In this document: positions 24,886 to 39,324 of the stretch, piece by piece | Layout: each line of letters begins with the position of its first letter | How positions within the stretch are numbered: the first letter of the stretch is position 1 | NCBI GenBank assembly: GCA_963717145.1 | Contig: OY970325.1 | Location: forward strand, 1,248,001-1,312,000 | DNA from: an uncultured Armatimonadetes bacterium | GTDB taxonomy: Bacteria; Armatimonadota; UBA5829; DTJY01 | Length of the DNA stretch: 64,000 nt | Direction: 5' to 3' | Made by a program: the position numbers and the translations under genes | Notes under the pieces: model-generated | Database searches by the model: none | Seen by the model: only the letters and a program-made list of their open reading frames with translations | Told to the model about the DNA's origin: nothing

Positions 24886-27612
24886 ATGCGAAAACTGCTG
24901 TTCCTGATCCTGCTCCTTCTACCGGTTCTGTGCCGGGCAGAGATGGACCGCGAGTTCGGCGCACAGAACGCCAGCTTCGCACGAGTCTCGGCTGACGGGA
25001 GCCCGGAGAACTGGCAGTTCTTCTCCGAAGGAACAGGTACCGGCCGATGCGAACTTGTCACGGAAGGGTCCACGCGCTTCGTCCGGGTGACTCGCGACAC
25101 TGGCGGAGACTACACCGGAGTACGTCAGCGCCTGGAGGGCTTCCACGTCAGCCCTTCCCTGGAATACACGATCGTTGGGGAATACAGCAGTCCCGTTGAA
25201 GGGCTCGCGCATCCGTGCGTCTATTACTTGAACGAAAACGGGCAGTTCCTGGGCGCATTCGAGTTCACGCTGCCCGCAACGAGCGAGATGACGAAGTTTG
25301 TCCGGCGGTTCAAGCCGCATCCCGGGACAAAGATCTTCGAGATCCAACTCCGCGCGCAGGGAAAGCCGGGAGAGGTCCGATACTATCGCTGCAACATCGT
25401 GCCACCTCTCATTGGTGCCGACGCCCCTGACCTAGTGCAGAGCGGAGCCGGCCTCGTCGTGGCACAGCCGGGCACCAGGTGTGCCATGCTGAATCCGGGC
25501 ACAACCCTGAAGGTTACCCTTCTTGGAGAGACCGGTGCCGAGGTGTACACCGACTATGGGCGGGCAGGCACTATGCTGGAGATCCGTCCACACGTACTGG
25601 CCACTGCCGATGGAGGAGCTGTGGATGTGCTCGCCAGCGGCCATGGGCTTCCTATCACATGGAAGGTCCTCTGCGAGCCAGGACGGGAGAAACACACTCT
25701 CGAAGTCACCGCGCCTAGCGATGGCCCAAACTTGCCGCTGCTGGTCTGCATCCGCCCGGTCAAAGGTGACCGCCTGAAGCCGCTCGCGGTCGAGTTCGGC
25801 GGATGGGAGAACGGCAACTTCGAGCCCAAGGGACAGTGGATCGGCGACTCCGAGAGGCTGATCGCAGAGGATGTTGACCTCACGATGGCCGAGATGATGC
25901 AGACGCTCACCGATGGAGGCAAGCGGCCGTTCATCGTGGAGAACGCCCTCACCAAGCCGATGAAGGGTGACATCGTCCGCAGATACGTTCTCGGCAAGGA
26001 GAAGCCGTCTTTCGAAGCGCGACTCCGGGCAGCCCAGGGTGAGTCGGAGGCATTCCAGGTGATGCTGCTCCCGAGTGCGGACGGCAAGCCGGCAAACATA
26101 TCCGGTGTGCGGTGTTCCGTATTGAGAAGCAAGGAAGGGACCATCCCTTCTTCCGCACTCCACATCTACCGGGTCGGGTATGTGGACTCCCCATGGGGCG
26201 AGCGCATCCCGGATCCACTCTTCACTGATCTCAACATGGGTGACCCGAGAGACCCTGTCGTCCTGATGGCGGACGTCCGTGTGCCGAGGGACGCTCCCGC
26301 CGGTGAGTACACGGGCTCGCTGCGGATGGCTATCAACGACAAGGCGACCGAAGTCCCGATCCGGCTCACCGTGTCGGACTTCGAGATCCCCGAGGAGAAC
26401 CACCTACGGACGTGCTTCTGGTTCTTCCGCGCGCAGATCAAGCGCCACTACGGCCTCGATCACGATCCCACGTGGGAGGAGTACCGCCCGTACCTCGACA
26501 TGGCGCTCCGATACCGTCTGACGCCGGTCGACTGCAATGAGGGCAACGTCGAGCCACTCTTCCAGGTCTACCGGGAGGCGGACGGCTCGTTCTCGATCGA
26601 CTGGACGGAGTTCGACCGGTTCGCAGAGTACATCCTCGCGCGCGGGGCGAACGTCCTCCACCTCGCGCCGACGCAGTGGTTCGGCTCGTGGTTCAGCGAA
26701 AAGCTGAAGGGCTTCTACAACACCGAGACGTTCACCGACCGCGCGACCGGCAACACTGAGCAGTTCACGCACCCATACCTCTCCGACGAGCACAAGAAGA
26801 TGCTCCAATGGTATCTTCGCGAGGCCTGCGACCATTTCGAGAAGAAGGGCTGGCTGAAGTACGCCTATCTCCAGCCGTTCGATGAAGTCGGCGAGAACCC
26901 CGAGGTCCTGAGCATCCTGAAGACGTGTCGCGAGGCCGATCCGCGCGTCAAGATCCTGATGGACGTCCTCCGGCCCGGCGACTCGATGGCCATGACGCCG
27001 CTGATCGACATCTGGTGTCCCCTGTCGCCGAATCTCCCCGGCGGCGGCTTCGAGCAGGTGCGCAAGGAGGGCGACGAGGTCTGGTGGTACGTCTGCATCG
27101 GGCCAAAGAAGCCATTCGCAAACCTCTTCACCAACTGGAGCGTGACCGAGCACCGGCAGCTATTCTGGCAGTCGTGGAAGTATCAGGCCGAGGGGCTGCT
27201 CTACTGGGGCATCAACTTCTGGAACTGGTGGGGGACGGAGAAGCCATACGACAAGAAGACATCATGGCCCGCAGGGAACTGGACCTCATCGACCACGAGC
27301 GGCGACACCGTGGGCGACGGGTACTTCATCTATCCCGGGCCGAAGGGTCCCCTGCCCTCGCTCCGTCTGCAGGCGATCCTCGACGGCATGGAGGACTACG
27401 AGTACCTGTGGCTGCTCGACGACCTCGTGAAGAAGGCCGAGGCGAAGGGCGTCCCCGCGATGGAGCTTGCGACCGCACGTCACCTGCTCACCGTCGACGG
27501 CAAGTTCTGCCGATCCCTCACCGAGTATTCCCGCGAGCCGGAGGACCTGAGGCTCATCCGCATGCAAGTCGCCCGCGAGATCGAGCGACTGAGTCGGAGG
27601 CCAGCGGATTAG
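24886..27612 (+). CDS. Secreted glycoside hydrolase-like protein (CBM-like N-terminus, GH123/DUF4091 C-terminus)
   Basis: Signal peptide; E.EAFQV, PDPL, FDE, WWYVC, GLLYW and GDGYFIYP...SLRL..I.DGMEDYEYL. Confidence 0.82.
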   Translation: MRKLLFLILLLLPVLCRAEMDREFGAQNASFARVSADGSPENWQFFSEGTGTGRCELVTEGSTRFVRVTRDTGGDYTGVRQRLEGFHVSPSLEYTIVGEYSSPVEGLAHPCVYYLNENGQFLGAFEFTLPATSEMTKFVRRFKPHPGTKIFEIQLRAQGKPGEVRYYRCNIVPPLIGADAPDLVQSGAGLVVAQPGTRCAMLNPGTTLKVTLLGETGAEVYTDYGRAGTMLEIRPHVLATADGGAVDVLASGHGLPITWKVLCEPGREKHTLEVTAPSDGPNLPLLVCIRPVKGDRLKPLAVEFGGWENGNFEPKGQWIGDSERLIAEDVDLTMAEMMQTLTDGGKRPFIVENALTKPMKGDIVRRYVLGKEKPSFEARLRAAQGESEAFQVMLLPSADGKPANISGVRCSVLRSKEGTIPSSALHIYRVGYVDSPWGERIPDPLFTDLNMGDPRDPVVLMADVRVPRDAPAGEYTGSLRMAINDKATEVPIRLTVSDFEIPEENHLRTCFWFFRAQIKRHYGLDHDPTWEEYRPYLDMALRYRLTPVDCNEGNVEPLFQVYREADGSFSIDWTEFDRFAEYILARGANVLHLAPTQWFGSWFSEKLKGFYNTETFTDRATGNTEQFTHPYLSDEHKKMLQWYLREACDHFEKKGWLKYAYLQPFDEVGENPEVLSILKTCREADPRVKILMDVLRPGDSMAMTPLIDIWCPLSPNLPGGGFEQVRKEGDEVWWYVCIGPKKPFANLFTNWSVTEHRQLFWQSWKYQAEGLLYWGINFWNWWGTEKPYDKKTSWPAGNWTSSTTSGDTVGDGYFIYPGPKGPLPSLRLQAILDGMEDYEYLWLLDDLVKKAEAKGVPAMELATARHLLTVDGKFCRSLTEYSREPEDLRLIRMQVAREIERLSRRPAD

Positions 27613-28653: not shown

Positions 28654-28774
28654 GTTCTGCCTCCTGTCGAGAAACTCTGCCTACTACTGGTAAGACACGC
28701 ATCGTACGAGTAAGTTGCGCTCATGGTGCCTCCACAAAGGTATTCACCGCCCGCTCGGCTTTTCACCTTCAACT

Positions 28775-28803
28775 TTGCCAAATCCGTCGGACTTCACTAT
28801 AAT
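28775..28803 (+). promoter_or_regulatory. sigma70-type promoter of pfp
   Basis: TTGCCA-17 nt-TATAAT. Confidence 0.7.
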
Positions 28804-28804
28804 A

Positions 28805-28870
28805 TGTAGTGGCCGTGCCTCCGTGCCGGCCAACCACGGTGCAGGCCGGCACGGAGGCACGGCCACTACA
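28805..28870. repeat. GTAG-ended REP-like palindrome, family A
   Basis: TGTAGTGGCCGTGCCTCCGTGCCGGCC...GGCCGGCACGGAGGCACGGCCACTACA. Confidence 0.9.
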
Positions 28871-28918
28871 TCGAGGCGTTATCCACAATCGAAGACGGGG
28901 GAGATGGAAAGCAATACT

Positions 28919-30578
28919 ATGGGCAAGGAATTATCAATCTTACAGAAACACCGCGCGGAGTATCAGCCGAAGCTGCCTGACGCGCTGAAGACCGGCGATA
29001 TCAAAGTCGAGTTCGGCGAGCCGTCGCATCCGGCGACCGATCAGTCGGACATCGAGCGGCTCTTCCCACTGAGCTACGGCCAGCCGGTCGTGAGGATCGT
29101 TCAGGGCGATGGCGGGCTCACCACCGAGCCGCTGAAGGTCGGCGTCGTGCTGTCGGGCGGACAGGCGCCGGGCGGGCACAACGTCATCGCCGGGCTGTTC
29201 GATGCGCTCAAGGCTGCGAACAGGGACAGCAAGCTCTTCGGCTTCCTGAAGGGCCCCGGCGGCGTCATCAAGGGCAAGTACAACGAGATCACCGCCGAGA
29301 TGATCGACGAGTACCGCAACACCGGCGGCTTCGACATGATCATGAGCGGGCGCGACAAGATCGAGAAGCCCGAGGACTTCGAGGCATGCCGCGACAACTT
29401 CGAGGAGATGGGGCTCGACGGCCTGGTGGTCATCGGCGGCGACGATTCGAACACGAACGCCGCGCTGCTCGCCGAGTACCTGCGGGGTCAGAAAAGCAAG
29501 ACGAGCATCATCGGCGTCCCGAAGACGATCGACGGCGACATGAAGAACGAGCAGATCGAGGCGTCGTTCGGCTTCGACACGGCGTGCAAGGTCTACTCCG
29601 AGCTGATCGGCAACATCTGCCGCGACGCGACGTCCGCGGTCAAGTACTGGCACTTCATCCGCCTGATGGGCCGCGCCGCGAGCCACGTGACGCTGGAATG
29701 CGCGCTCCAGACCCACCCGAACATCACGCTCATCTCCGAGGAGGTCCAGGAGAAGGGCACGCACGCTCGAGGAGATCGTCGACTACATCGCCGACGTGAT
29801 CGTCAAGCGCGCCGAGAAGGGACAGAACTACGGCGTGCTGCTCGTCCCCGAGGGTCTGCCGGAGTTCATCTCGGACATCAAGGCGATGATCGACGAGCTG
29901 AGCACGATCCTTGGCAGGGACGAGGACTACATCAAGGGCCTGAGCGATCACTCCGAGCGCGTGCAGCATATCACAGGCGAACTGACCGACGCGAGCGCCA
30001 AGGTGTACAACTCGCTGCCCGTGGACATCCAGGAAGTGCTGCTGAAGCGCGACAGCCACGGCAACGTGCCGCTCTCGCAGGTCGAGACCGAGCGGCTGCT
30101 GATCGATCTGGTCTCGGATAAGATCCGCTTCATCAAGGCACATGACGGCAAGAAGTGGCTCAAGTTCAGCCCGCTGACTCACTTCTTCGGCTACGAGGGC
30201 CGCTGCGCCGCGCCGTCGAACTTCGACGCGGACTACACCTATTCCCTCGGCTACGCGGCGGCGCAGCTCGTGCGCGCGAGACTGACGGGGTACACCGCGA
30301 ACGTGCAGAACCTGACGAAGCAATCGGACGAGTGGGTCGCCGGCGGAATACCGGTGACGATGATGCTGAACATGGAGACGCGCAAGGGCAAGAAGGTCCC
30401 GGTGATCAAGAAGGCGCTCGTCGACCTGGACGGCGCGCCGTTCAAGAAGTTCGCCGCGAATCGCGAGGACTGGGCGCTGAACGACGAGTACATCTTCCCC
30501 GGCCCGATCCAGTACTTCGGCCCGTCCGAGATCGCGGACCGCACGACGGAGACGCTTGCCTTGGAGAGAGGGTGCTGA
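28919..30578 (+). CDS. pfp: PPi-dependent phosphofructokinase (long clade); frameshift near 29762
   Basis: [27 protein letters not shown] and LMGR.ASH; continues as VPEGL.EF...HFFGYEGRC in ORF 29796..30578. Confidence 0.92.
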
Positions 30579-30587
30579 GGTAAACCC

Positions 30588-30730
30588 TGTTCGGGCTGGA
30601 GTTGCCAGTGTTCGGGCTGGAGTTGTACTCCAGCTCGCGCCACTAACCGCGGAGTTGTACTCCGCCACGGCTCGGCGAATGGAGTACAACTCCATCATCA
30701 GTCTCACGTGCCGGAGTACAACTCCGGCAC
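30588..30730. repeat. Cluster of four GGAGTTGTACTCC-core hairpins preceded by a 21-nt duplication
   Basis: Cores at 30619 and 30651 (forward) and 30681 and 30713 (reverse). Confidence 0.85.
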
Positions 30731-30748
30731 GAACGGGCACTGGGTTTC

Positions 30749-31642
30749 CTACAAGGTCTCGATTCCGTGCGTCGTGAGAAGGTATTCCTTCGCGGCGGAC
30801 ATATCTTCGGCGGACGGCTCGCGGAACGGGTCCGGGTAGCGGGTGATTCCGAGGCGGGCGTACTTGGAGTCGCCGAGGGCGTGGTATGCAAGAAGCTCGA
30901 TCCCTCGGCAGTTGCGAAGTGAACGATATATCGCGGCCAGGCGGTCGAGATGTTCCTCGGTGAGGTTGACTCGGGCGATGAGGAGGCAGCGGAGGATGGT
31001 CACGCCGCCTGCTTCATCGACCCGGCGGAGGTTCTCGAGGATCGGGGCGAGTGGGACGCGGGTGTTGGCTTCGTGCCGCGCCTCGTCCGTGTCCTTGATG
31101 TCCCACAGGAACAGGTCCACAAGCGGAACGATCTCCAGGAAGCGCTCCGACGGCCCGAAGCCGCATGTCTCGATGCATGTGTGGAGCTTCTCGCCCCCCT
31201 CAAGGATCTGACGGGTGAACTCGAACTGTGCGAGCGGCTCTCCGCCCGAGAGCGTGAGTCCCCCACCCGATTCCTCGTAGAACACGCGGTCCTTCTCGAC
31301 CTCGGCGATGACTTCCCGGGGCGTCATCTCCTTCCCCGCGACTTCGAGGGCGCGGGCGAAGCATCCGTCGGCGCAGGTCATGCACGCCCGGCACATGATC
31401 CGATCGAATGCGTGACCATCCTGGGTCAACGAGTGCCCGCCCTCGGGGCAGACGGCGACGCACTTCCCGCACCCGATGCACAGCCTGGGCGTATAGAAAA
31501 GCTCAGGCTGTCGGCGCTTCGACTCAGGGTTGTGACACCACGCGCAGTCGAGCGGGCAGCCCTTGAGGAACACGACGGTCCGGATGCCCGGCCCGTCGTG
31601 AGTGCAGAATCGCTGGATATCGAAGATAGTTCCTGTTGCCAT
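30749..31642 (-). CDS. Glycyl-radical enzyme activating enzyme (radical SAM, with ferredoxin insert)
   Basis: IQRF..HDGPGIRTVVFLKGCPLDCAWCHNPE, CIGCGKCVAVCP, CRACMTCADGC and GG.TLSGGEPL. Confidence 0.95.
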   Translation of the reverse strand: MATGTIFDIQRFCTHDGPGIRTVVFLKGCPLDCAWCHNPESKRRQPELFYTPRLCIGCGKCVAVCPEGGHSLTQDGHAFDRIMCRACMTCADGCFARALEVAGKEMTPREVIAEVEKDRVFYEESGGGLTLSGGEPLAQFEFTRQILEGGEKLHTCIETCGFGPSERFLEIVPLVDLFLWDIKDTDEARHEANTRVPLAPILENLRRVDEAGGVTILRCLLIARVNLTEEHLDRLAAIYRSLRNCRGIELLAYHALGDSKYARLGITRYPDPFREPSAEDMSAAKEYLLTTHGIETL

Positions 31643-31650
31643 GACATTAT

Positions 31651-31726
31651 GTGTGGGAGTATGGGGGTATGGGAGTTTAGGCGCTCCGGACTCCCATACC
31701 CCCACACCCCCACACACCCATACTCC
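31651..31726. repeat. Inverted 8-nt tandem repeat (GTGTGGGA/GTATGGGG ... CCCATAC/CCCACAC)
   Basis: Octamer units on both arms; fills the GRE-activase intergenic gap. Confidence 0.8.
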
Positions 31727-31728
31727 GC

Positions 31729-34293
31729 CTACACCGTCTGCTGCGTGCGGCCGATCACCATGTCCTGCCAGTTCTTGTCGAGAGTGGCAAACCGGGCCGA
31801 CCATCCTGCGATGCGGACTGCAAGGTTCGGGTATTTCTCGGGATGCCGCTGGGCGTCGAGGAGGAGCGCCGTGTCGACGACATCTATGTGCAGGAAACAG
31901 CCTCTGAGTTTGACAAAGCTCTTCATCACCCCGACTAGCGCGGTGACGCCCTGCTCGCCCTTGACCGACGCCGGCAGGACCTTCAACTCGAGCGTCCCGA
32001 TGTTCGGCAGGTTCGTATAGTCCATCTTGCAGTAGGACTTGAGCATCGCCGTCGGACCCTTGCGGTCTGTCCCGGGCGATGGGGAGAAGTTCGTGGCGAG
32101 GATCTCGCCGAGGTGGTGGCCGTCGGCGGTCGCCCTGCGGTGTCCCCTCCACTCGATCTCGCGCCCGAACGTACTGATCCCCGCCGGGCGGAGGACGCCG
32201 TTCCGCTCCTTGACCACTGAGGCCATCCGCGTGTAATCGTCGAAGATGCGCTTGACCATCGCGTCGGCCTCGTCGTTGTCGTTGCCGTAGGTCTCGATGC
32301 GGTTGAGGACAAGCTGCCGGAGGTTCTCCTGCCCCTGCCAGTCGGAGCGGAGGATGTCGATGAACTCACCGAGCGAAAGGCGCTTCTCGTCATAGACGAG
32401 CTTCTTGATCGCGAGCAGGCTGTTCGCCGTGTTGGCGATCCCTCCGATGTGCGGCGCAAGCACTGTATACGCCGGCCCGCGGTCCCAGTAGCCGCGCCCT
32501 TTCTCGATGCATCCCTCGATCAGCATCGAGACGACCGGCGGCGCGGCCCCTCCGAGGCAGTATCCGTCCGCGCCCGCGTTGTGGGAATCGACCGCCGCCT
32601 GGAGTTCCTTCGCGAACCCGGCGTAGAGGCTCTCGAAGTCCTCAAAGTATTGGTTCTGCCCATCATGTTGGTTCTGGAGTTGTACTCCAGAACCGTCCAC
32701 TTGTTGCGGGTTCTGGAGTACAACTCCAGAACCAACATCGTTATTCAGGCCGAGGGCCTGCTGAAGCATCCTGAGGGAGTCCTGGGGCGAGTAGATGAAG
32801 CTCGTCTTGCCGGGAACGATCGCCTCCCAGCAGCCGTCGTTCGCGAACCGGCGCGCCTCCTCGATCGGGTAGCCGAACTTCACCAGCGCAGCGATGACGA
32901 CCTCCTCGTTGTAGACGGCCACGATCCCGCCGCCGTAACGCTGGACCTCCGCGATGCGCTTGAGCAGCTTCTCGGGAGTGCGGCGGTTGAGCCGGACTGC
33001 GATCGGGTAGTCGCTGATATGGAGTTCCTCGACGACATCGAGCGCGAGGTAGGTCACGTCGTTGGTGACCTCCTTCCCCTCGGCGTCGATCCCCGCGAGG
33101 ACTATGTTCTGGTAGTGCTGGGCATCCCCACTGCCGCGACCCTCCAACGCGCCGATCCACTCCGTGCCCTTGATCCAGAAGTGGGCGAGGTCCTCGCGGG
33201 CCTCGTCGATAACGTTGGTCGTAGTGGCCGCGCCTCCGTGCCGGCCTTCCGTGCCTCCGTGCCGGCCTCCACCGTCGCTGGCCGGCACAGAGGCGCGGCC
33301 ACTACGGGCGTTCTCCAGGTCGCGCTTGAGGTAGGGCATGAGCATCTCGTCGATGCGCCCGATGCCGGACCAGTTGCCGCAGAGGCGCTGGAAGGCATAC
33401 GCGAACCAGAGCGACTGGACCGCCTCCGCGAAGGTCGTCGGCGGGTTCTCGGGGACATTGGCCAGGTTGCGGAGAACGCGCTCGTAGCCGGCCTTCTCAT
33501 CGCCGGTGGACTTCGCGATCAGCTCACGGAGGTGGCTGATGTTGCGTGCGTGCCATCGGTTGGCGGCGTCGAGGCAGAGCTTCATCGCCTGGAGCAGATC
33601 GACGCCCTTCGCATCGAGCGCCGACCTCGCCTGTAGGGGCGTGCCTTGTGCCGCCAGATGTTGGTTCTGGAGTTGGACTCCAGAACCCTCTGCAGTGGTA
33701 GGGTTCTGGAGTCCAACTCCAGAACCAACATCGGGGACTCCAGACCCAACATCGAGGTAAGAGGAGGGGTCGGCCAGCCGCTCGTCTATCTCCTTGCGGA
33801 TACCCTTGTAGCCGACTCGGAGCACCTTGTCGAAGCCGAGCGTCGTGTGGCTGACGCTCCCCTTGCCGTAGATCGGGACCGCGTGGTGAGGACCTTCGAC
33901 AAACGTCGCCGACCCGACGATCCGCTCGCCGGGGAGGATCCGCAGGGGCGCGCGCTCGGCGATGAACTCGATCGCGCGGGCGCACTTCATCTCCTCCGAG
34001 AGGCCGGTGACGTCGATCAACTCCTCGATCTTGACGCCAGCCGGGACCATCGAGCGCCCGAACTCGCCCCTCAGTCCACGCTCGGCGAGCGAGCGGGTGA
34101 CGTCCGACAGCCGCTTCGGAGTCGGGAACGGTTTGTCGATGTTCAAAGTCTTCACCATGCTCTCCGCCTCCGATCCCGCCTCAGCCGCCTGACCCGTACT
34201 CAGGTAGAACAGCCCGCCGCCAAGCGCGACCATCCCCGTCTTGATGAACTCCCGCCGATCGATGCCCTTCTTCTTCGCCATGTGATCTCTCAT
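31729..34293 (-). CDS. Glycyl-radical enzyme (PFL-like superfamily) with predicted Tat signal peptide; start at 34293 or 34281
   Basis: C-terminal HPEKYPNLAVRIAGWSARF Gly loop, NDGCWE Cys loop, P..F.EAVQ and GRID motifs; N-terminal IDRREFIK + hydrophobic stretch + AEA. Confidence 0.92.
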   Translation of the reverse strand: MRDHMAKKKGIDRREFIKTGMVALGGGLFYLSTGQAAEAGSEAESMVKTLNIDKPFPTPKRLSDVTRSLAERGLRGEFGRSMVPAGVKIEELIDVTGLSEEMKCARAIEFIAERAPLRILPGERIVGSATFVEGPHHAVPIYGKGSVSHTTLGFDKVLRVGYKGIRKEIDERLADPSSYLDVGSGVPDVGSGVGLQNPTTAEGSGVQLQNQHLAAQGTPLQARSALDAKGVDLLQAMKLCLDAANRWHARNISHLRELIAKSTGDEKAGYERVLRNLANVPENPPTTFAEAVQSLWFAYAFQRLCGNWSGIGRIDEMLMPYLKRDLENARSGRASVPASDGGGRHGGTEGRHGGAATTTNVIDEAREDLAHFWIKGTEWIGALEGRGSGDAQHYQNIVLAGIDAEGKEVTNDVTYLALDVVEELHISDYPIAVRLNRRTPEKLLKRIAEVQRYGGGIVAVYNEEVVIAALVKFGYPIEEARRFANDGCWEAIVPGKTSFIYSPQDSLRMLQQALGLNNDVGSGVVLQNPQQVDGSGVQLQNQHDGQNQYFEDFESLYAGFAKELQAAVDSHNAGADGYCLGGAAPPVVSMLIEGCIEKGRGYWDRGPAYTVLAPHIGGIANTANSLLAIKKLVYDEKRLSLGEFIDILRSDWQGQENLRQLVLNRIETYGNDNDEADAMVKRIFDDYTRMASVVKERNGVLRPAGISTFGREIEWRGHRRATADGHHLGEILATNFSPSPGTDRKGPTAMLKSYCKMDYTNLPNIGTLELKVLPASVKGEQGVTALVGVMKSFVKLRGCFLHIDVVDTALLLDAQRHPEKYPNLAVRIAGWSARFATLDKNWQDMVIGRTQQTV

Positions 34294-34580
34294 ATCGGTC
34301 TGGCCTCCTTCAATATGCGTTGGCGGATCAGCCAATAGATGCTGTCGTCGATCACTACATCTACAGCCCGCCCCAGAAGCTCACTGAGATCGGCGAGCAA
34401 CCCTGACTGGTCAAGTAGGCTTCGGTCGGGCTCCATCGTCACCAAGAAGTCGATGTCGCTCAATGCCGTGTCATCGCCCCGAGCCGCGCTGCCGAACACG
34501 CGCACATTTCCCGCGCCGTGGCTCGCCGCCAAGCGCAGGATGTCCTCTCGTCTTTCCACGATGAGTTCAAGCGCCGTCAT
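34290..34580 (-). CDS. Minimal nucleotidyltransferase (MNT antitoxin type), orphan
   Basis: 96 aa; VRVFGS.ARG....SDIDFLV...LLGR.VDVV. Confidence 0.88.
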   Translation of the reverse strand: MTALELIVERREDILRLAASHGAGNVRVFGSAARGDDTALSDIDFLVTMEPDRSLLDQSGLLADLSELLGRAVDVVIDDSIYWLIRQRILKEARPI

Positions 34581-34713
34581 GATGCCCCCCGGGTGACCGT
34601 TACCTACATTATACACCAGAATCCGCCGAATGCCTCCCTTCACATTCGTGCCGCACACACAGCAAGAGCTCGTCCGATATGACTGCCAGGATGGCGGCGA
34701 TCAATGATAGAGG

Positions 34714-34742
34714 TTGACAAAGACGAGGAGGCGGCGTAAGCT
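34714..34742 (+). promoter_or_regulatory. Putative sigma70 promoter
   Basis: TTGACA-17 nt-TAAGCT upstream of 34809. Confidence 0.5.
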
Positions 34743-34808
34743 TGGAGCAAGCTACCGGTTATACTGCACCACGATGAAGACCAACTAGTCGTTCTGTGGA
34801 GCGCTTCA

Positions 34809-35450
34809 ATGAACCTCACTCCTGAAGACAGACAGAGAATCTATGAAGAAGAGAAAGATCGCATCGCGGCGCAGAGCGGGCAGTTGGCTCAGCCTCAGCG
34901 GGCCTCCAGTAAGTTGACATGCCTGGGGGTGGGCTGTGGTGTTGTCGCCGCAGTCCTAGCGGTGGTGTTCCTATGCGTTGCCGGCCTTGGTTACGTGATC
35001 TACAAGGCATCTGATCTCGATGATGCTTTCAACTCGGGTCTGCAGGGTACTACACCGCCAACGAAGTTCGTCAAGGTCGAATGGCGGCTTGCGCCTGAGG
35101 GGTTTGACCGAAGCACTTTCATGCGACGTCCCCAGGGTACGTTGTGGGCTCCCGTGTACGTGCGGGTCACGAACCACGGTTATGACAAGGTGCCGGTGAA
35201 CCCTGCCTACTGCGCCTTGAACATCAACGGCACATCGTACTCGTTCGGACCGGTGCCGGTGAAGCGTGACTTGCCGTTGTGTGAGTTGTCGAGCGGCGCG
35301 AGCACGGACGGTTACGTAGGGTTTGAGATTCCCGCAAATGTCCGCGCAACGACTGCCCGTTTCGAGTTCAAGCCACTGGTGCTCTTCGAGAACTACGAAG
35401 TCCAGTACGAGATGTTGGGCGACAGCTCCAGTCCGAGATCCAAGCCCTGA
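34809..35450 (+). CDS. Single-TM protein with DUF4352-like Ig-fold domain
   Basis: LTPEDRQRIYEEEK N-terminus, TM helix, V.VTN.G...VNP...L..G....G.V.FEIP pattern. Confidence 0.6.
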   Translation: MNLTPEDRQRIYEEEKDRIAAQSGQLAQPQRASSKLTCLGVGCGVVAAVLAVVFLCVAGLGYVIYKASDLDDAFNSGLQGTTPPTKFVKVEWRLAPEGFDRSTFMRRPQGTLWAPVYVRVTNHGYDKVPVNPAYCALNINGTSYSFGPVPVKRDLPLCELSSGASTDGYVGFEIPANVRATTARFEFKPLVLFENYEVQYEMLGDSSSPRSKP

Positions 35451-36356: not shown

Positions 36357-39324
36357 GGAACTCGGACTCGGGGCCGGGGTAGACCGCCTCCGCGAGGTGC
36401 TCGATGCCCTGCTGGTTGCCCCAGGAGTAGACGATGTGCGTCTTTCCATCGAACTCGCAGAAGTCCACGTCCGAGTTGTTGATGTTCACCGCCCCCGCGA
36501 TCCGATCGCGCTCAGCGGACGTGAGCTTCGGATTGGCGATCAGCTTGTCCTCGATCGAGTAATGCATGATCGGGTTCTGGGGGCTGCTCTCCCACCTCAC
36601 GAGATCCTTCGAGCGGACGATGCAGGGGTTATACGTCGGACCGGGGTACGCCTCGAGGTAGACCATGTAGTACCAGCCCTCGAGGAATCGGATCGCGGGG
36701 CATGCCGTGTAGCGCTCCTTCGAGTAGACGCACTCCTCACCCGTGAGCTTCCACTCCCGGAGGTCCTTCGACTCGGCGAACCGCATCGTGAACGCGACGC
36801 CGGTCTCCTCGGGCGGGCGGCCGATCTCGAACGCCATGACGTAGCCGTCCCGACCCTTGCAGACTGAGGTGTTGAAGATCCCCCACCCCTTCAAGTCGAG
36901 CGCGGTCTTGCTCTCCCAATGCTGAAGGTCCTTCGACCAGAAGACTTCGACTTTCTCGCCGTCCCAGATGTTCACACCAAACGCGTAGGCGGTGTCACCA
37001 TCCACGAACGCGCTGCCGAGATGGTATCCCTGCGCGAACGCGGGTGTCGGGTCGCCGGTCTTCACGTCCACGAACCGGAAGTACGACGGCTTGCCGAGGT
37101 TCGGCTAGTAATACTGATCGCGCACGTACTCGAAGCGGTACAGCCTGCCCTTGAAGACGACGGGAGTCGCCTCGACCAGGTCGCAAACGATCGTCCCGAG
37201 CTTCCTGATCTTCGGGAGGATGCCGTCCGACGCGTGTATATCGGCGTTAGACGCGCGTATATCGGCGTTAGACGCGCGTCGATCGGCGTTGGACACACGT
37301 CCATCGGCGTTGGACACACGTCCATCGGCGTTGGACACACGTCCATCGGCGTCGGACGACTTGCGGTATTCGTCGTTGTACAAACCGATCTCCTCCATTG
37401 GAATGCGCTTGAAACCTTGTTTGAACGCGGGCGAATCGTCTCTCAATCGGAAGTCCCCGCGCGCGAAGTCGACGAACCCCGGATCGAGATCCACCGTGTT
37501 GTCCCGAATGGTGAAAAGTTCGCTGCAGATGGCGTCGGTCACTCGCAGCCACTGTCCGCCGAAGGAGATGTTCCGCGCGAGGGTGTTGTACTTCGGCGCG
37601 CCGGGCTCGTCGTCGTAGAGCTTGAGCAGTTCGGGGTAGCGCTCCTTCCAGGGCGACTCGCGGTAGGGCATCGCCTCGAGCTGCTCCTTCATGTAGCCGT
37701 CCACGGTACCCTTCGCCCAGTTGAGTCCCCTCGCATCGACTGCGACGGCGGGATCGCACTCGATGAAGAGATTGTTTTCCACCGCGCAGTCTCGTCCGCC
37801 GCCGATGCAGACGCCCATCTTGGCCTTGTAGAGGACGTTGCCGTAGATGCGCATATCGCTCGCGCAGTCGTCGATGTAGATCGAGCGAACGTCTTGTGTC
37901 CCCATGTGATGGAAGTAGTTGTAGCGGATGACGTTCCCTCGCCAGGAGAAGTCGCGCCCGGTGTAGAACCCGCCGGAGTCGCTCGTCTCCATGCAGACGT
38001 GGTGCGTTTCGTTGAACTCCATGATGTGGTCGTTGCCGGTGAAGATGATGGCGGTGTGGGGCGCGTCGTGCATGAGGTTATGGGCGACCCGGTTGCCGAC
38101 GCCGCCGAGGGATACAGCGGGGCGGTAGGTCCGATTCCACCGGCTGAAGTGGTGGATGTGATTGTTGACGGCGAAGCACTTGCCGGGAATCAGCTTGGCG
38201 CGGTCGCCCGCATTGATGACGATGCCCGTCTCGCCGATGTTGTAGAGATCGCAGGACTGGACGCCCGATTCCGTGCTGCCCTGGATGCTGATCCCCGTGC
38301 AGCCGATGTTTCGGACCGCGCACCCGGCGATGAGGCAGTGCGCGCCTCCGGTGATACGGATTCCATCACCGCGCGCGTGCTCGAACGTGAGGCCTCGCAT
38401 GGTGATGTGGGAGGCGTTTTCGATGGTGACGAGCGGCGTCTCGAGGATCGAGACGGCCACGCGGGCATTCTTGATCGGCGATGGCGGCCAGAAGTAGAGG
38501 ATACCGGTCGCGCGGTCGAGATAGAACTCGCCGGGCTGATCCAGCTCCTCCAGGATGTTCTCCCAGTAGAAGCGCTTGCCCGCGGTGTAACCGTAGATCC
38601 CGTGCGGCGGTTCCGTGGCGACGACGTGGTTCGCCAGGTCGATGCTCTTAACCTTCTCGTGAGTCTCGGCCCAGTCCCAGGTCCAGTAGCCGTGCACCCA
38701 GATGTCGTCCGTCGACTTCCAGCGCGAAGGGCGGTCTCGTTCGTATGCAAACTTCCCTCCCTGAGGGCCGTCGGGGACGCCCGCGATCTTCGCCCACTCA
38801 CCATTCGGCCAGCGCGCGAGTTCCATCGGCTGATCGTTGAAGAACAGCTCGAGCGCGGCAGTGCCCCCTGCGCCGTATCCGCGACGTTTCAGGGAGCCGA
38901 AGTCAGTGATCCCGAGGGCCTTGAGGTCCGCCTGAAGAACCTTCCCTCGACTGGCTTCATCAATGCGACCCAGGATGGCGGGATCGGTAACCGGTCGGAA
39001 GCCCTTGACCTCTCTGCCGCCGCTGATGAAGACCTCCTCACCCTCGCAGGCACGGTAGGTGATCGGGCGCACCTCCCTGCCGCCGTCTCCCGCGACCAGG
39101 GCGAAGGTCTCTGTGCGGTTATAGACGCCGCCCCGCAGCCAGATCGTCGCTCCGCCCGGGCCGATCTTCAACAATCTAAGGATGTCGCGGGCACGCTCCA
39201 GCGTGGCGAACGGCTTCCCTTTCGTACCGGGATTTGTGTCGCTCCCATTGGGAGCAACATAGAATTCCGTCGCCTGCGCGGCCGCGGTAAAGAGTAGCAG
39301 TAGCAGAATAGCGAACGATCTCAT
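36334..39324 (-). CDS. Secreted right-handed beta-helix protein fused to a glycosidase-like propeller domain; interrupted by one in-frame TAG at 37105-37107
   Basis: FYVAPNGSD.NPGT..KPFATLERA, ARWPN, ELD.PGEFY and IYIDD motifs. ORF 36334..37071 is in the same frame as ORF 37105..39324. Confidence 0.75.
37229..37354. repeat. 21-nt tandem repeat x6, encoding an (S)NADGRV/NADIRA linker
   Basis: GACACACGTCCATCGGCGTTG-type units in tandem. Confidence 0.92.

Follow-up and report, generated by a model that had tools for sequence, protein, structure and literature searches.

To our knowledge, all characterised glycyl radical enzymes (GREs) reside either in the cytoplasm or in microcompartments. Glycerol and propanediol dehydratases carry no signal peptide and work in one of these two places, and HypD is likewise a cytoplasmic enzyme. 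GREs need a cytoplasmic radical S-adenosylmethionine (SAM) activase, SAM itself and a reductant, and their glycyl radical is destroyed by oxygen. Proteins that mature in the cytoplasm and leave it afterwards are known from the twin-arginine translocation (Tat) pathway, whose classical substrates TorA, DmsA and the hydrogenase small subunits receive their cofactor in the cytoplasm and are then exported in the folded state. Here we describe a GRE gene that begins with a predicted Tat signal, located on the minus strand of a 64,000-nucleotide stretch (hereafter the window, meaning the whole stretch analysed) of contig OY970325.1 from an uncultured Armatimonadetes bacterium, and we compare it with its relatives and with these described systems.

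The GRE gene occupies 31729..34293 of the minus strand (854 aa, with the stop codon included in the end) within an open reading frame (ORF) that spans 31729..34335. Translation from the ATG at 34293 begins MRDHMAKKKGIDRREFIKTGMVALGGGLFYLSTGQAAEAGSEAES, and direct reading of the sequence gives a Shine-Dalgarno-like AAGGAGG (34304..34310, minus) 10 nt before this ATG. A second ATG at 34281 yields the start MAKKKG, which a preliminary description of this DNA had quoted and at which the closest relatives begin. By motif reading and conservation in relatives, the predicted Tat signal peptide covers residues 1-39 (34177..34293, minus) and is composed of the n-region DRREFIK, a Gly-rich hydrophobic region (h-region) GMVALGGGLFYLS and the c-region AEA. 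D-R-R-E-F-I-K corresponds to residues 12-18, with the twin-arginine motif RREFIK at residues 13-18 (34240..34257, minus), and AEA followed by GS corresponds to residues 37-41, where cleavage would fall before G40. The RR motif, the h-region and the A-x-A that had been reported at the start of this GRE are hence all present on the minus strand.

Behind this N-terminus stand the GRE domains. The 854-aa protein matches Pfam PFL-like (PF02901) with 293.8 bits against a cut-off of 24.3, in two stretches because the match is split by the insertions described below, and Gly_radical (PF01228) with 78.8 bits. The Cys loop NDGCWE lies at residues 485-490 (32824..32841, minus) and aligns with the GCVE of the solved structures 1r8w, 5i2a and 6vxc, which places the catalytic Cys at 488 and the accompanying Glu at 490; it is invariant in the 33-sequence alignment A1. 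The glycyl radical loop RIAGWS, at residues 827-832 (31798..31815, minus), falls inside the Gly_radical match. The single-Cys loop and the Gly loop were accordingly found as previously described.

Conservation of the N-terminus was examined in relatives collected by a search of 5.8 billion proteins, which returned 2073; the best 120 of these 2073, down to about 51% identity, were considered, and 118 of the 120 are full-length (at least 680 aa). With a signal defined as RR and, after it, 10 or more uncharged residues in a row, RR plus a hydrophobic region was present in 90 of the 118 full-length relatives. The consensus around RR in these 90 forms is [NDS]-R-R-[DE]-F-[LIV]-K; 82 of them have F at +3, 64 have K at +5, and RR starts at a median position of 9. 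Their h-regions are Gly-rich (median length 17, mean Kyte-Doolittle value 1.31) and are followed by A-x-A in 66 of the 90, at a median position of 35. RR is invariant in all 33 sequences of alignment A1, in which a variable linker follows the signal and leads to a conserved mature start, P.RLSD.TH.LA.RG. When 100 full-length representatives of other GRE clusters were taken as a control, 6 fitted the loose pattern, five of them through internal RRA helices, and one alone (P0203) resembled an N-terminal signal. A stretch that is untranslated, or no more than a vestige, would not be expected to retain RR, F(+3), K(+5), the hydrophobic region and A-x-A in this way. Judged by these counts and the control, the conservation exceeds chance, and the predicted Tat-type signal of this family is in our view real and conserved; the extension had earlier been proposed to be a genuine part of the protein rather than a miscalled start, and the 90 of 118 relatives and the 33 of 33 RR bear this out.

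The machinery needed for such a signal is encoded in the same genome. Assembled as a single contig of 5.37 Mb, the window genome has genes for TatC (203.8 bits) and for two TatA/B proteins (72.2 and 45.3 bits), and TatC was also found in 5 of the 5 other tested genomes with signal-bearing forms.

Two observations concern related leaders. P0203, a 765-aa cluster representative from a different clade (Cys loop AIAGCEEP, Gly loop RVGGFS), has a Tat-like start, MKGAIPRREFLYGAVAAPCALAAEK, and may be an independent second case of a GRE with a Tat-like leader. In eight members from Bacteroidota and Opitutales the leader has a single Arg, S-R-x-[DE]-F-[LI]-[KR], ahead of a hydrophobic region (loci L035, from Alistipes hominis New-7, L040, L053, L060, L063, L064, L066 and L068). 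These single-Arg forms branch from among the RR forms of their clade, which takes 3 or more state changes, and their leader could be either a natural Tat signal without RR or the mark of a switch of export pathway.

The extent of the family was assessed by a further search of 1.84 billion cluster representatives, which gave 6473 hits at E ≤ 0.001. The family proper (at least 44% identity to P0003, a near relative of the window GRE) comprises about 18 full-length clusters at 50% identity, most of them signal-less. A sister clade at 35-37% identity shares NDGCWE but starts with the N-terminal helix that is usual for GREs and lacks a signal, and the bulk of the PFL2-like enzymes, with GCVE-type loops, come next at about 270-300 bits. 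The GCWE loop had been presented as a peculiarity of this gene; it is instead the mark of the whole family and of its signal-less sister clade. As for the question whether GCWE-clade homologues also carry RR peptides, 90 of 118 full-length family members do and the sister clade does not. Signal-less family members (44-56% identity) and the sister clade have the same Cys loop, Gly loop and overall length as the window GRE, and the signal-less members share the sporadic company of glycoside hydrolases seen near signal-bearing forms. They differ in three respects: the signal peptide is missing, the protein starts at the linker (M..ETLNV.. or ..W.P..P.RLSD), and their position on the tree is basal.

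Tree 1, built with FastTree, contains 142 rows: 8 outgroup sequences from the sister clade and, out of P0002-P0138, all proteins with a length of 680 aa or more. In this tree 14 signal-less cluster representatives are basal, and a single nested clade of 120 rows takes in all signal-bearing forms with a support of 93, support here being local SH-like values only. Tree 2 was built from 66 locus-derived proteins, 8 family representatives and 5 outgroup sequences, with 15 truncated loci excluded, and in it the window GRE adjoins that of an Armatimonadota metagenome-assembled genome (MAG), L002. RR forms were found at 5 Armatimonadota loci besides the window, 10 in Hydrogenedentota, 7 in Planctomycetota and 8 in Bacteroidota, at 4 loci of MAGs labelled Nitrospirota and at 5 with no phylum label. 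One carrier of the signal family, Alistipes hominis New-7 (locus L035), is in culture, and the idea of export is therefore directly testable. The window genome holds four further GRE genes (C1 571621-573699, 582251-584533, 778155-780416 and 3973426-3975948), which belong to other clades with GCIE and GCNE loops and RVSGFS and RVAGYS; none of these four has a Tat-like N-terminus.

Part of the signal-bearing clade carries an additional domain. In 33 signal-bearing proteins a lectin-like Laminin_G_3/concanavalin-like (LamG) domain is present (residues 207-340 of P0062), on an insertion of about 215 aa between ...ERLARGG and LD.KG.DLL. In tree 1 the LamG forms all lie within the signal-bearing clade. 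The domain probably occupies a surface loop and would give the family an extracytoplasmic flavour.

An activase accompanies the GRE gene. The ORF for a GRE-activating radical SAM enzyme (297 aa, 30749..31642, minus; TIGR02494, 311.4 bits against a cut-off of 174.35) begins 86 nt downstream of the GRE stop on the same strand. The protein begins MATGTIFDIQRF, has a CPLDCAWC motif and two ferredoxin-like cluster motifs, and shows neither an N-terminal extension nor a signal peptide. A neighbourhood set was assembled from 80 loci of species-representative genomes plus the window (81 loci in total), and the ORFs were clustered. Among the 34 loci with a recognisable activase, none had an activase with a signal-like N-terminus, in agreement with the earlier remark that the adjacent activase is signal-less; two automatic flags for activase signals were rejected, as they came from over-extended ORFs. 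The activase was also the sole conserved neighbour of the GRE: GRE clusters were present at 81 of 81 loci and activase clusters at 63 of 81, where many contigs end early. At one locus, in a Lentisphaerae MAG (L071:12152-15028), the activase ORF continues into a DUF2961 (GH172-like) domain for a total of 958 aa, which reflects either a fusion or a stop or frameshift that went unrecognised.

The solved structures that best match the window GRE are 5i2a (E 3.9e-82) and 1r8w (E 1.6e-81), followed by 6vxc (E 1.3e-74). Of these, 5i2a (like 5i2g) is 1,2-propanediol dehydratase, 1r8w is the B12-independent glycerol dehydratase and 6vxc is HypD. The window GRE and 1r8w/5i2a share the ten-stranded-barrel GRE domains, the Gly loop and a G-C-x-E in which Cys and Glu align, and both have an equivalent of His164 and an activase of the TIGR02494 type with extra ferredoxin-like clusters. 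In the alignment the window GRE has counterparts of C433, E435 and H164 of 1r8w, whereas D447 faces a gap and H281/S282 face S/G; H164, H281/S282 and D447 are the diol-binding residues of 1r8w. The window family thus differs from 1r8w/5i2a in having no Asp447 equivalent, in Ser/Gly in place of His281/Ser282, in Trp for Val in the Cys loop and in Trp for Tyr after the radical Gly. The Glu two residues after the catalytic Cys (C-x-E) presumably acts as the general base.

No curated NCBIfam GRE model passed its cut-off on the window protein. TIGR01774 (PFL2/glycerol dehydratase) gave 314.7 bits with the window protein and 344.9 bits with the insertion-free P0003, against a cut-off of 678.2, and the models for HypD, HpsG, HpfG, CutC, indoleacetate decarboxylase, HPA decarboxylase and PFL were all far below their cut-offs. 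HypD (trans-4-hydroxy-L-proline dehydratase; NF043068), also a C-x-E eliminase, was the second-best NCBIfam model with 301 bits, far below its cut-off of 1100, and the window GRE is therefore not a HypD orthologue. A search of the ESM Atlas with the window protein returned only generic GRE clusters. By the NCBIfam scores the enzyme lies outside every characterised clade, as the preliminary description had anticipated. Given the C-x-E motif and the absence of any model passed, the enzyme may be expected to work like a C-x-E eliminase outside any characterised specificity group. The best explanation of these comparisons is that it is a member of an uncharacterised PFL2-like clade, marked by NDGCWE and R[IV]AGWS, and has gained a predicted Tat signal peptide.

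The window GRE is about 100 aa longer than its relatives, due to three stretches that are absent from all 32 aligned relatives, including the 87%-identical P0003. Alignment places insertion 1 (48 aa) at residues 174-221 (33631..33774, minus), where it consists of element-A palindromes, GGTTCTGGAGT...ACTCCAGAACC, and occupies the loop in which other family members carry the LamG domain. Insertion 2 (29 aa, GRASVPAS..., residues 332-360; 33214..33300, minus) was recognised by alignment and repeats as element B, which resembles a repetitive extragenic palindromic (REP) sequence, and insertion 3 (23 aa, residues 521-543; 32665..32733, minus) is by alignment a second copy of element A. Pairs of GGTTCTGGAGT...ACTCCAGAACC occur at 6 loci in the genome, two of them inside the GRE gene. 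The REP-like element B forms a hairpin of about 60 nt, made up of GTAGTGGCCGTGCCTCCGTGCCGGCC, a loop and GGCCGGCACGGAGGCACGGCCACTAC, and occurs at 66 genome loci; many copies lie at ORF edges and few lie deep inside long ORFs. One further copy, at 28806-28869, falls in the N-terminal part of the ORF 28715-30121, in which a phosphofructokinase domain begins at residue 141. A preference of element B for coding DNA was considered and rejected, since an ORF of 200 aa or more spans 46 of the 66 copies compared with 365 of 400 random 60-nt windows.

Two public DNA runs of one soil-labelled sample cover small shares of the stretch (0.09 and 0.07), and no RNA run matching it was found among the public sequencing runs searched. 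Contigs of relatives about 90% identical, from one soil-labelled sample, bridge 33209 to 33313 through 16 other letters; these relatives therefore lack insertion 2. All three insertion sites fall in loops where the alignments to 1r8w, 5i2a and 6vxc show gaps and variable length, and as site 1 is in addition the LamG loop, the protein may tolerate the insertions. In-frame palindromic elements are known from Rickettsia genes, and the insertions in the window GRE resemble them. The GRE had been called intact; its reading frame is indeed open, but it is interrupted by three lineage-specific in-frame insertions of palindromic repeat DNA, which the preliminary description had not noted. From these comparisons the window copy is probably still functional.

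Taken together, we consider it probable, judging from sequence comparisons, that the GRE is activated in the cytoplasm, exported through the Tat pathway, cleaved after AEA and employed as an eliminase on a glycan-derived small molecule in an anoxic periplasm. The GRE would fold and dimerise in the cytoplasm, where the neighbouring cytoplasmic radical SAM activase would put the glycyl radical into the RIAGWS loop. TatABC would then export the folded enzyme, and signal peptidase would cut after AEA (residue 39). In the anoxic periplasm, where the radical would have to survive outside the cytoplasm, Cys488 would form a thiyl radical and Glu490 would serve as the base for chemistry of the 1,2-elimination type on a small polar substrate, probably one derived from glycans. 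The proposed chemistry is that of glycerol/diol dehydratase, HypD and CutC. The route would follow the same logic as that of the classical Tat substrates, with maturation confined to the cytoplasm and subsequent export through an S/T-R-R-x-F-L-K signal. It would differ in the cargo, a protein-based radical instead of a metal cofactor, and in that no dedicated proofreading chaperone gene is conserved beside the window-type GREs.

Several points weigh against this export reading. The periplasm offers neither SAM nor reductant nor activase, and an exported GRE could therefore not be re-activated there; we also know of no precedent for an exported GRE. With Pfam TAT_signal (PF10518, cut-off 22.7) the window N-terminus reached only 12.6 bits, below the cut-off that its relatives P0036 (24.6) and P0039 (25.6) exceed, although the scores of these two speak for the signal at the level of the family, and no NCBIfam Tat model matched the window protein at E ≤ 0.01. 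Of the 5 genomes tested that carry signal-less forms, 4 have TatC too, and because this compares with 5 of 5 for signal-bearing forms, its presence is consistent with export and does not discriminate. Across the 81 loci no conserved transporter, downstream enzyme or Tat chaperone was found with the GRE-activase pair. Several signal-less subclades lie inside the Tat-bearing clade, the Tat label needs a minimum of 15 state changes on tree 1 and 11 on tree 2, and one Armatimonadota chromosome (OY781964.1) holds sister paralogues of which L028 has the signal and L036 does not. These subclades and the L028/L036 pair imply that the signal was repeatedly lost or gained, and that the catalytic core also works, or worked, in the cytoplasm. 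The core evidently serves on either side of the membrane, and the likeliest history of the signal, as read from the trees, is one gain followed by several losses. Moreover, the window gene has an internal ATG (M59, MVKTLN) with GGAGG 8 nt upstream, so that a cytoplasmic isoform is possible, and the three insertions, with about 100 aa in total, might inactivate this copy.

There are rival explanations of the same data. It seems unlikely, though worth serious attention, that the family is Tat-exported while the window copy itself is decaying or inactive, its open frame being a recent accident after three palindromic elements had landed in it. The absence of the insertions from all aligned relatives, the bridging contigs without insertion 2 and the mobile look of the two repeats at their 6 and 66 genome loci would fit such decay. 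Nevertheless, all three insertions are in frame and free of stops, identity to P0003 outside them is 87%, none of the residues invariant in the family has been lost, the sites are loops of variable length of which one houses a whole LamG domain in relatives, and the activase is intact. This explanation is in any case compatible with export at the level of the family. It is more doubtful still that the GRE stays in the cytoplasm, with the RR N-terminus as a vestige, a regulatory or chaperone tag or a tether to the cytoplasmic face, or with translation starting at Met59. The signal-less subclades begin where the window has its internal MVKTLN (for example MSLVETLNV...), exactly at the linker, and the GGAGG before the internal ATG, the TAT_signal score below cut-off and the cytoplasmic or microcompartment location of all GREs known to be characterised point in the same direction. 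Set against this are the retention of RR, F(+3), K(+5), the hydrophobic region and A-x-A in about 90 sequences from several phyla, and the confinement of every LamG form to the signal-bearing clade. A true start at MVKTLN, with homologues lacking the extension, had been foreseen as the outcome that would speak against export; such subclades do exist, but the nearest relatives P0003, P0004 and P0005 keep the signal and lack the internal Met.

Finally, the GRE could be exported and yet be radical-inactive outside, as a binding or structural protein, or it could remain anchored by an uncleaved signal. A periplasm without means of re-activation would make such a role conceivable, and A-x-A is missing in 24 of the 90 signals. 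However, conservation of the Gly loop, the Cys loop and the neighbouring activase is strict across the Tat clade, which argues for selection on radical catalysis, and we regard this explanation as highly improbable.

The remaining neighbourhood of the family is variable. Sporadic neighbours in the set of 81 loci were sulfatases (8 loci), GH123 (4, including the window) and GH127 (3), as well as AraC and IclR regulators, GFO/IDH/MocA oxidoreductases and phosphomannose isomerase; neither an aldehyde or alcohol dehydrogenase nor a microcompartment shell was conserved as an operon partner at these loci. At the RR-type loci, where 128 of 136 nearest neighbours were scanned and the 8 longest ORFs were left out, the neighbours were mostly housekeeping genes, together with three sulfatases, a 3-keto-disaccharide hydrolase, a glucuronyl esterase, a lectin-like protein and a PA14 protein. 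At the single-Arg and signal-less loci, with 73 of 78 nearest neighbours scanned and 5 activase or antisense ORFs left out, GH78 and GH106 rhamnosidases, a GH29 fucosidase with a sulfatase, GH51, GH127, GH116 and GH10 were found. Genes for rhamnosidase, fucosidase, arabinofuranosidase and GH116 thus occur near family GREs. The link to glycan breakdown is recurrent but loose, and the LamG domain of 33 signal-bearing proteins is the stronger hint. The sugar-derived substrate that the preliminary description had suggested may fit these sporadic neighbours.

In the window, the GRE gene is flanked by a GH123-domain protein (908 aa, 24886-27612, plus) and a right-handed beta-helix (pectate-lyase-like) protein (739 aa, 37105-39324, minus), and both fit a glycan-degrading setting. 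Directly upstream, an MNT-type nucleotidyltransferase gene (96 aa, Pfam NTP_transf_2, 34290-34580, minus) overlaps the GRE start with its stop (ATGA); it has no adjoining HEPN partner gene and is not kept beside the GRE at other loci. A promoter and terminator scan of 30400-34900 gave nothing above shuffled expectation.

A full-text literature search, with subscription journals outside its scope, returned no description of a GRE with an export signal. In the portions of PMC9324843 and PMC5606693 where 'glycyl radical' and Tat or signal-peptide terms both occur, the two are unrelated to each other.

For the family as a whole, we give an even chance to the broader proposal that a widespread GRE clade is carried through the Tat pore radical and all, and performs periplasmic elimination on glycan-derived substrates, with some members guided by LamG domains. 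The clade in question occurs in Armatimonadota, Hydrogenedentota, Planctomycetota and gut and rumen Bacteroidota. If the proposal is true, these would be the first GREs working outside the cytoplasm, and a protein-based radical would be exportable in the folded state and usable in the periplasm of anaerobes. It would also add a new kind of cargo to those known for the Tat pathway and extend the range of sites at which radical chemistry takes place, and it would point to an unknown step of anaerobic glycan breakdown in bacteria of soil, sediment, digester, rumen and gut.

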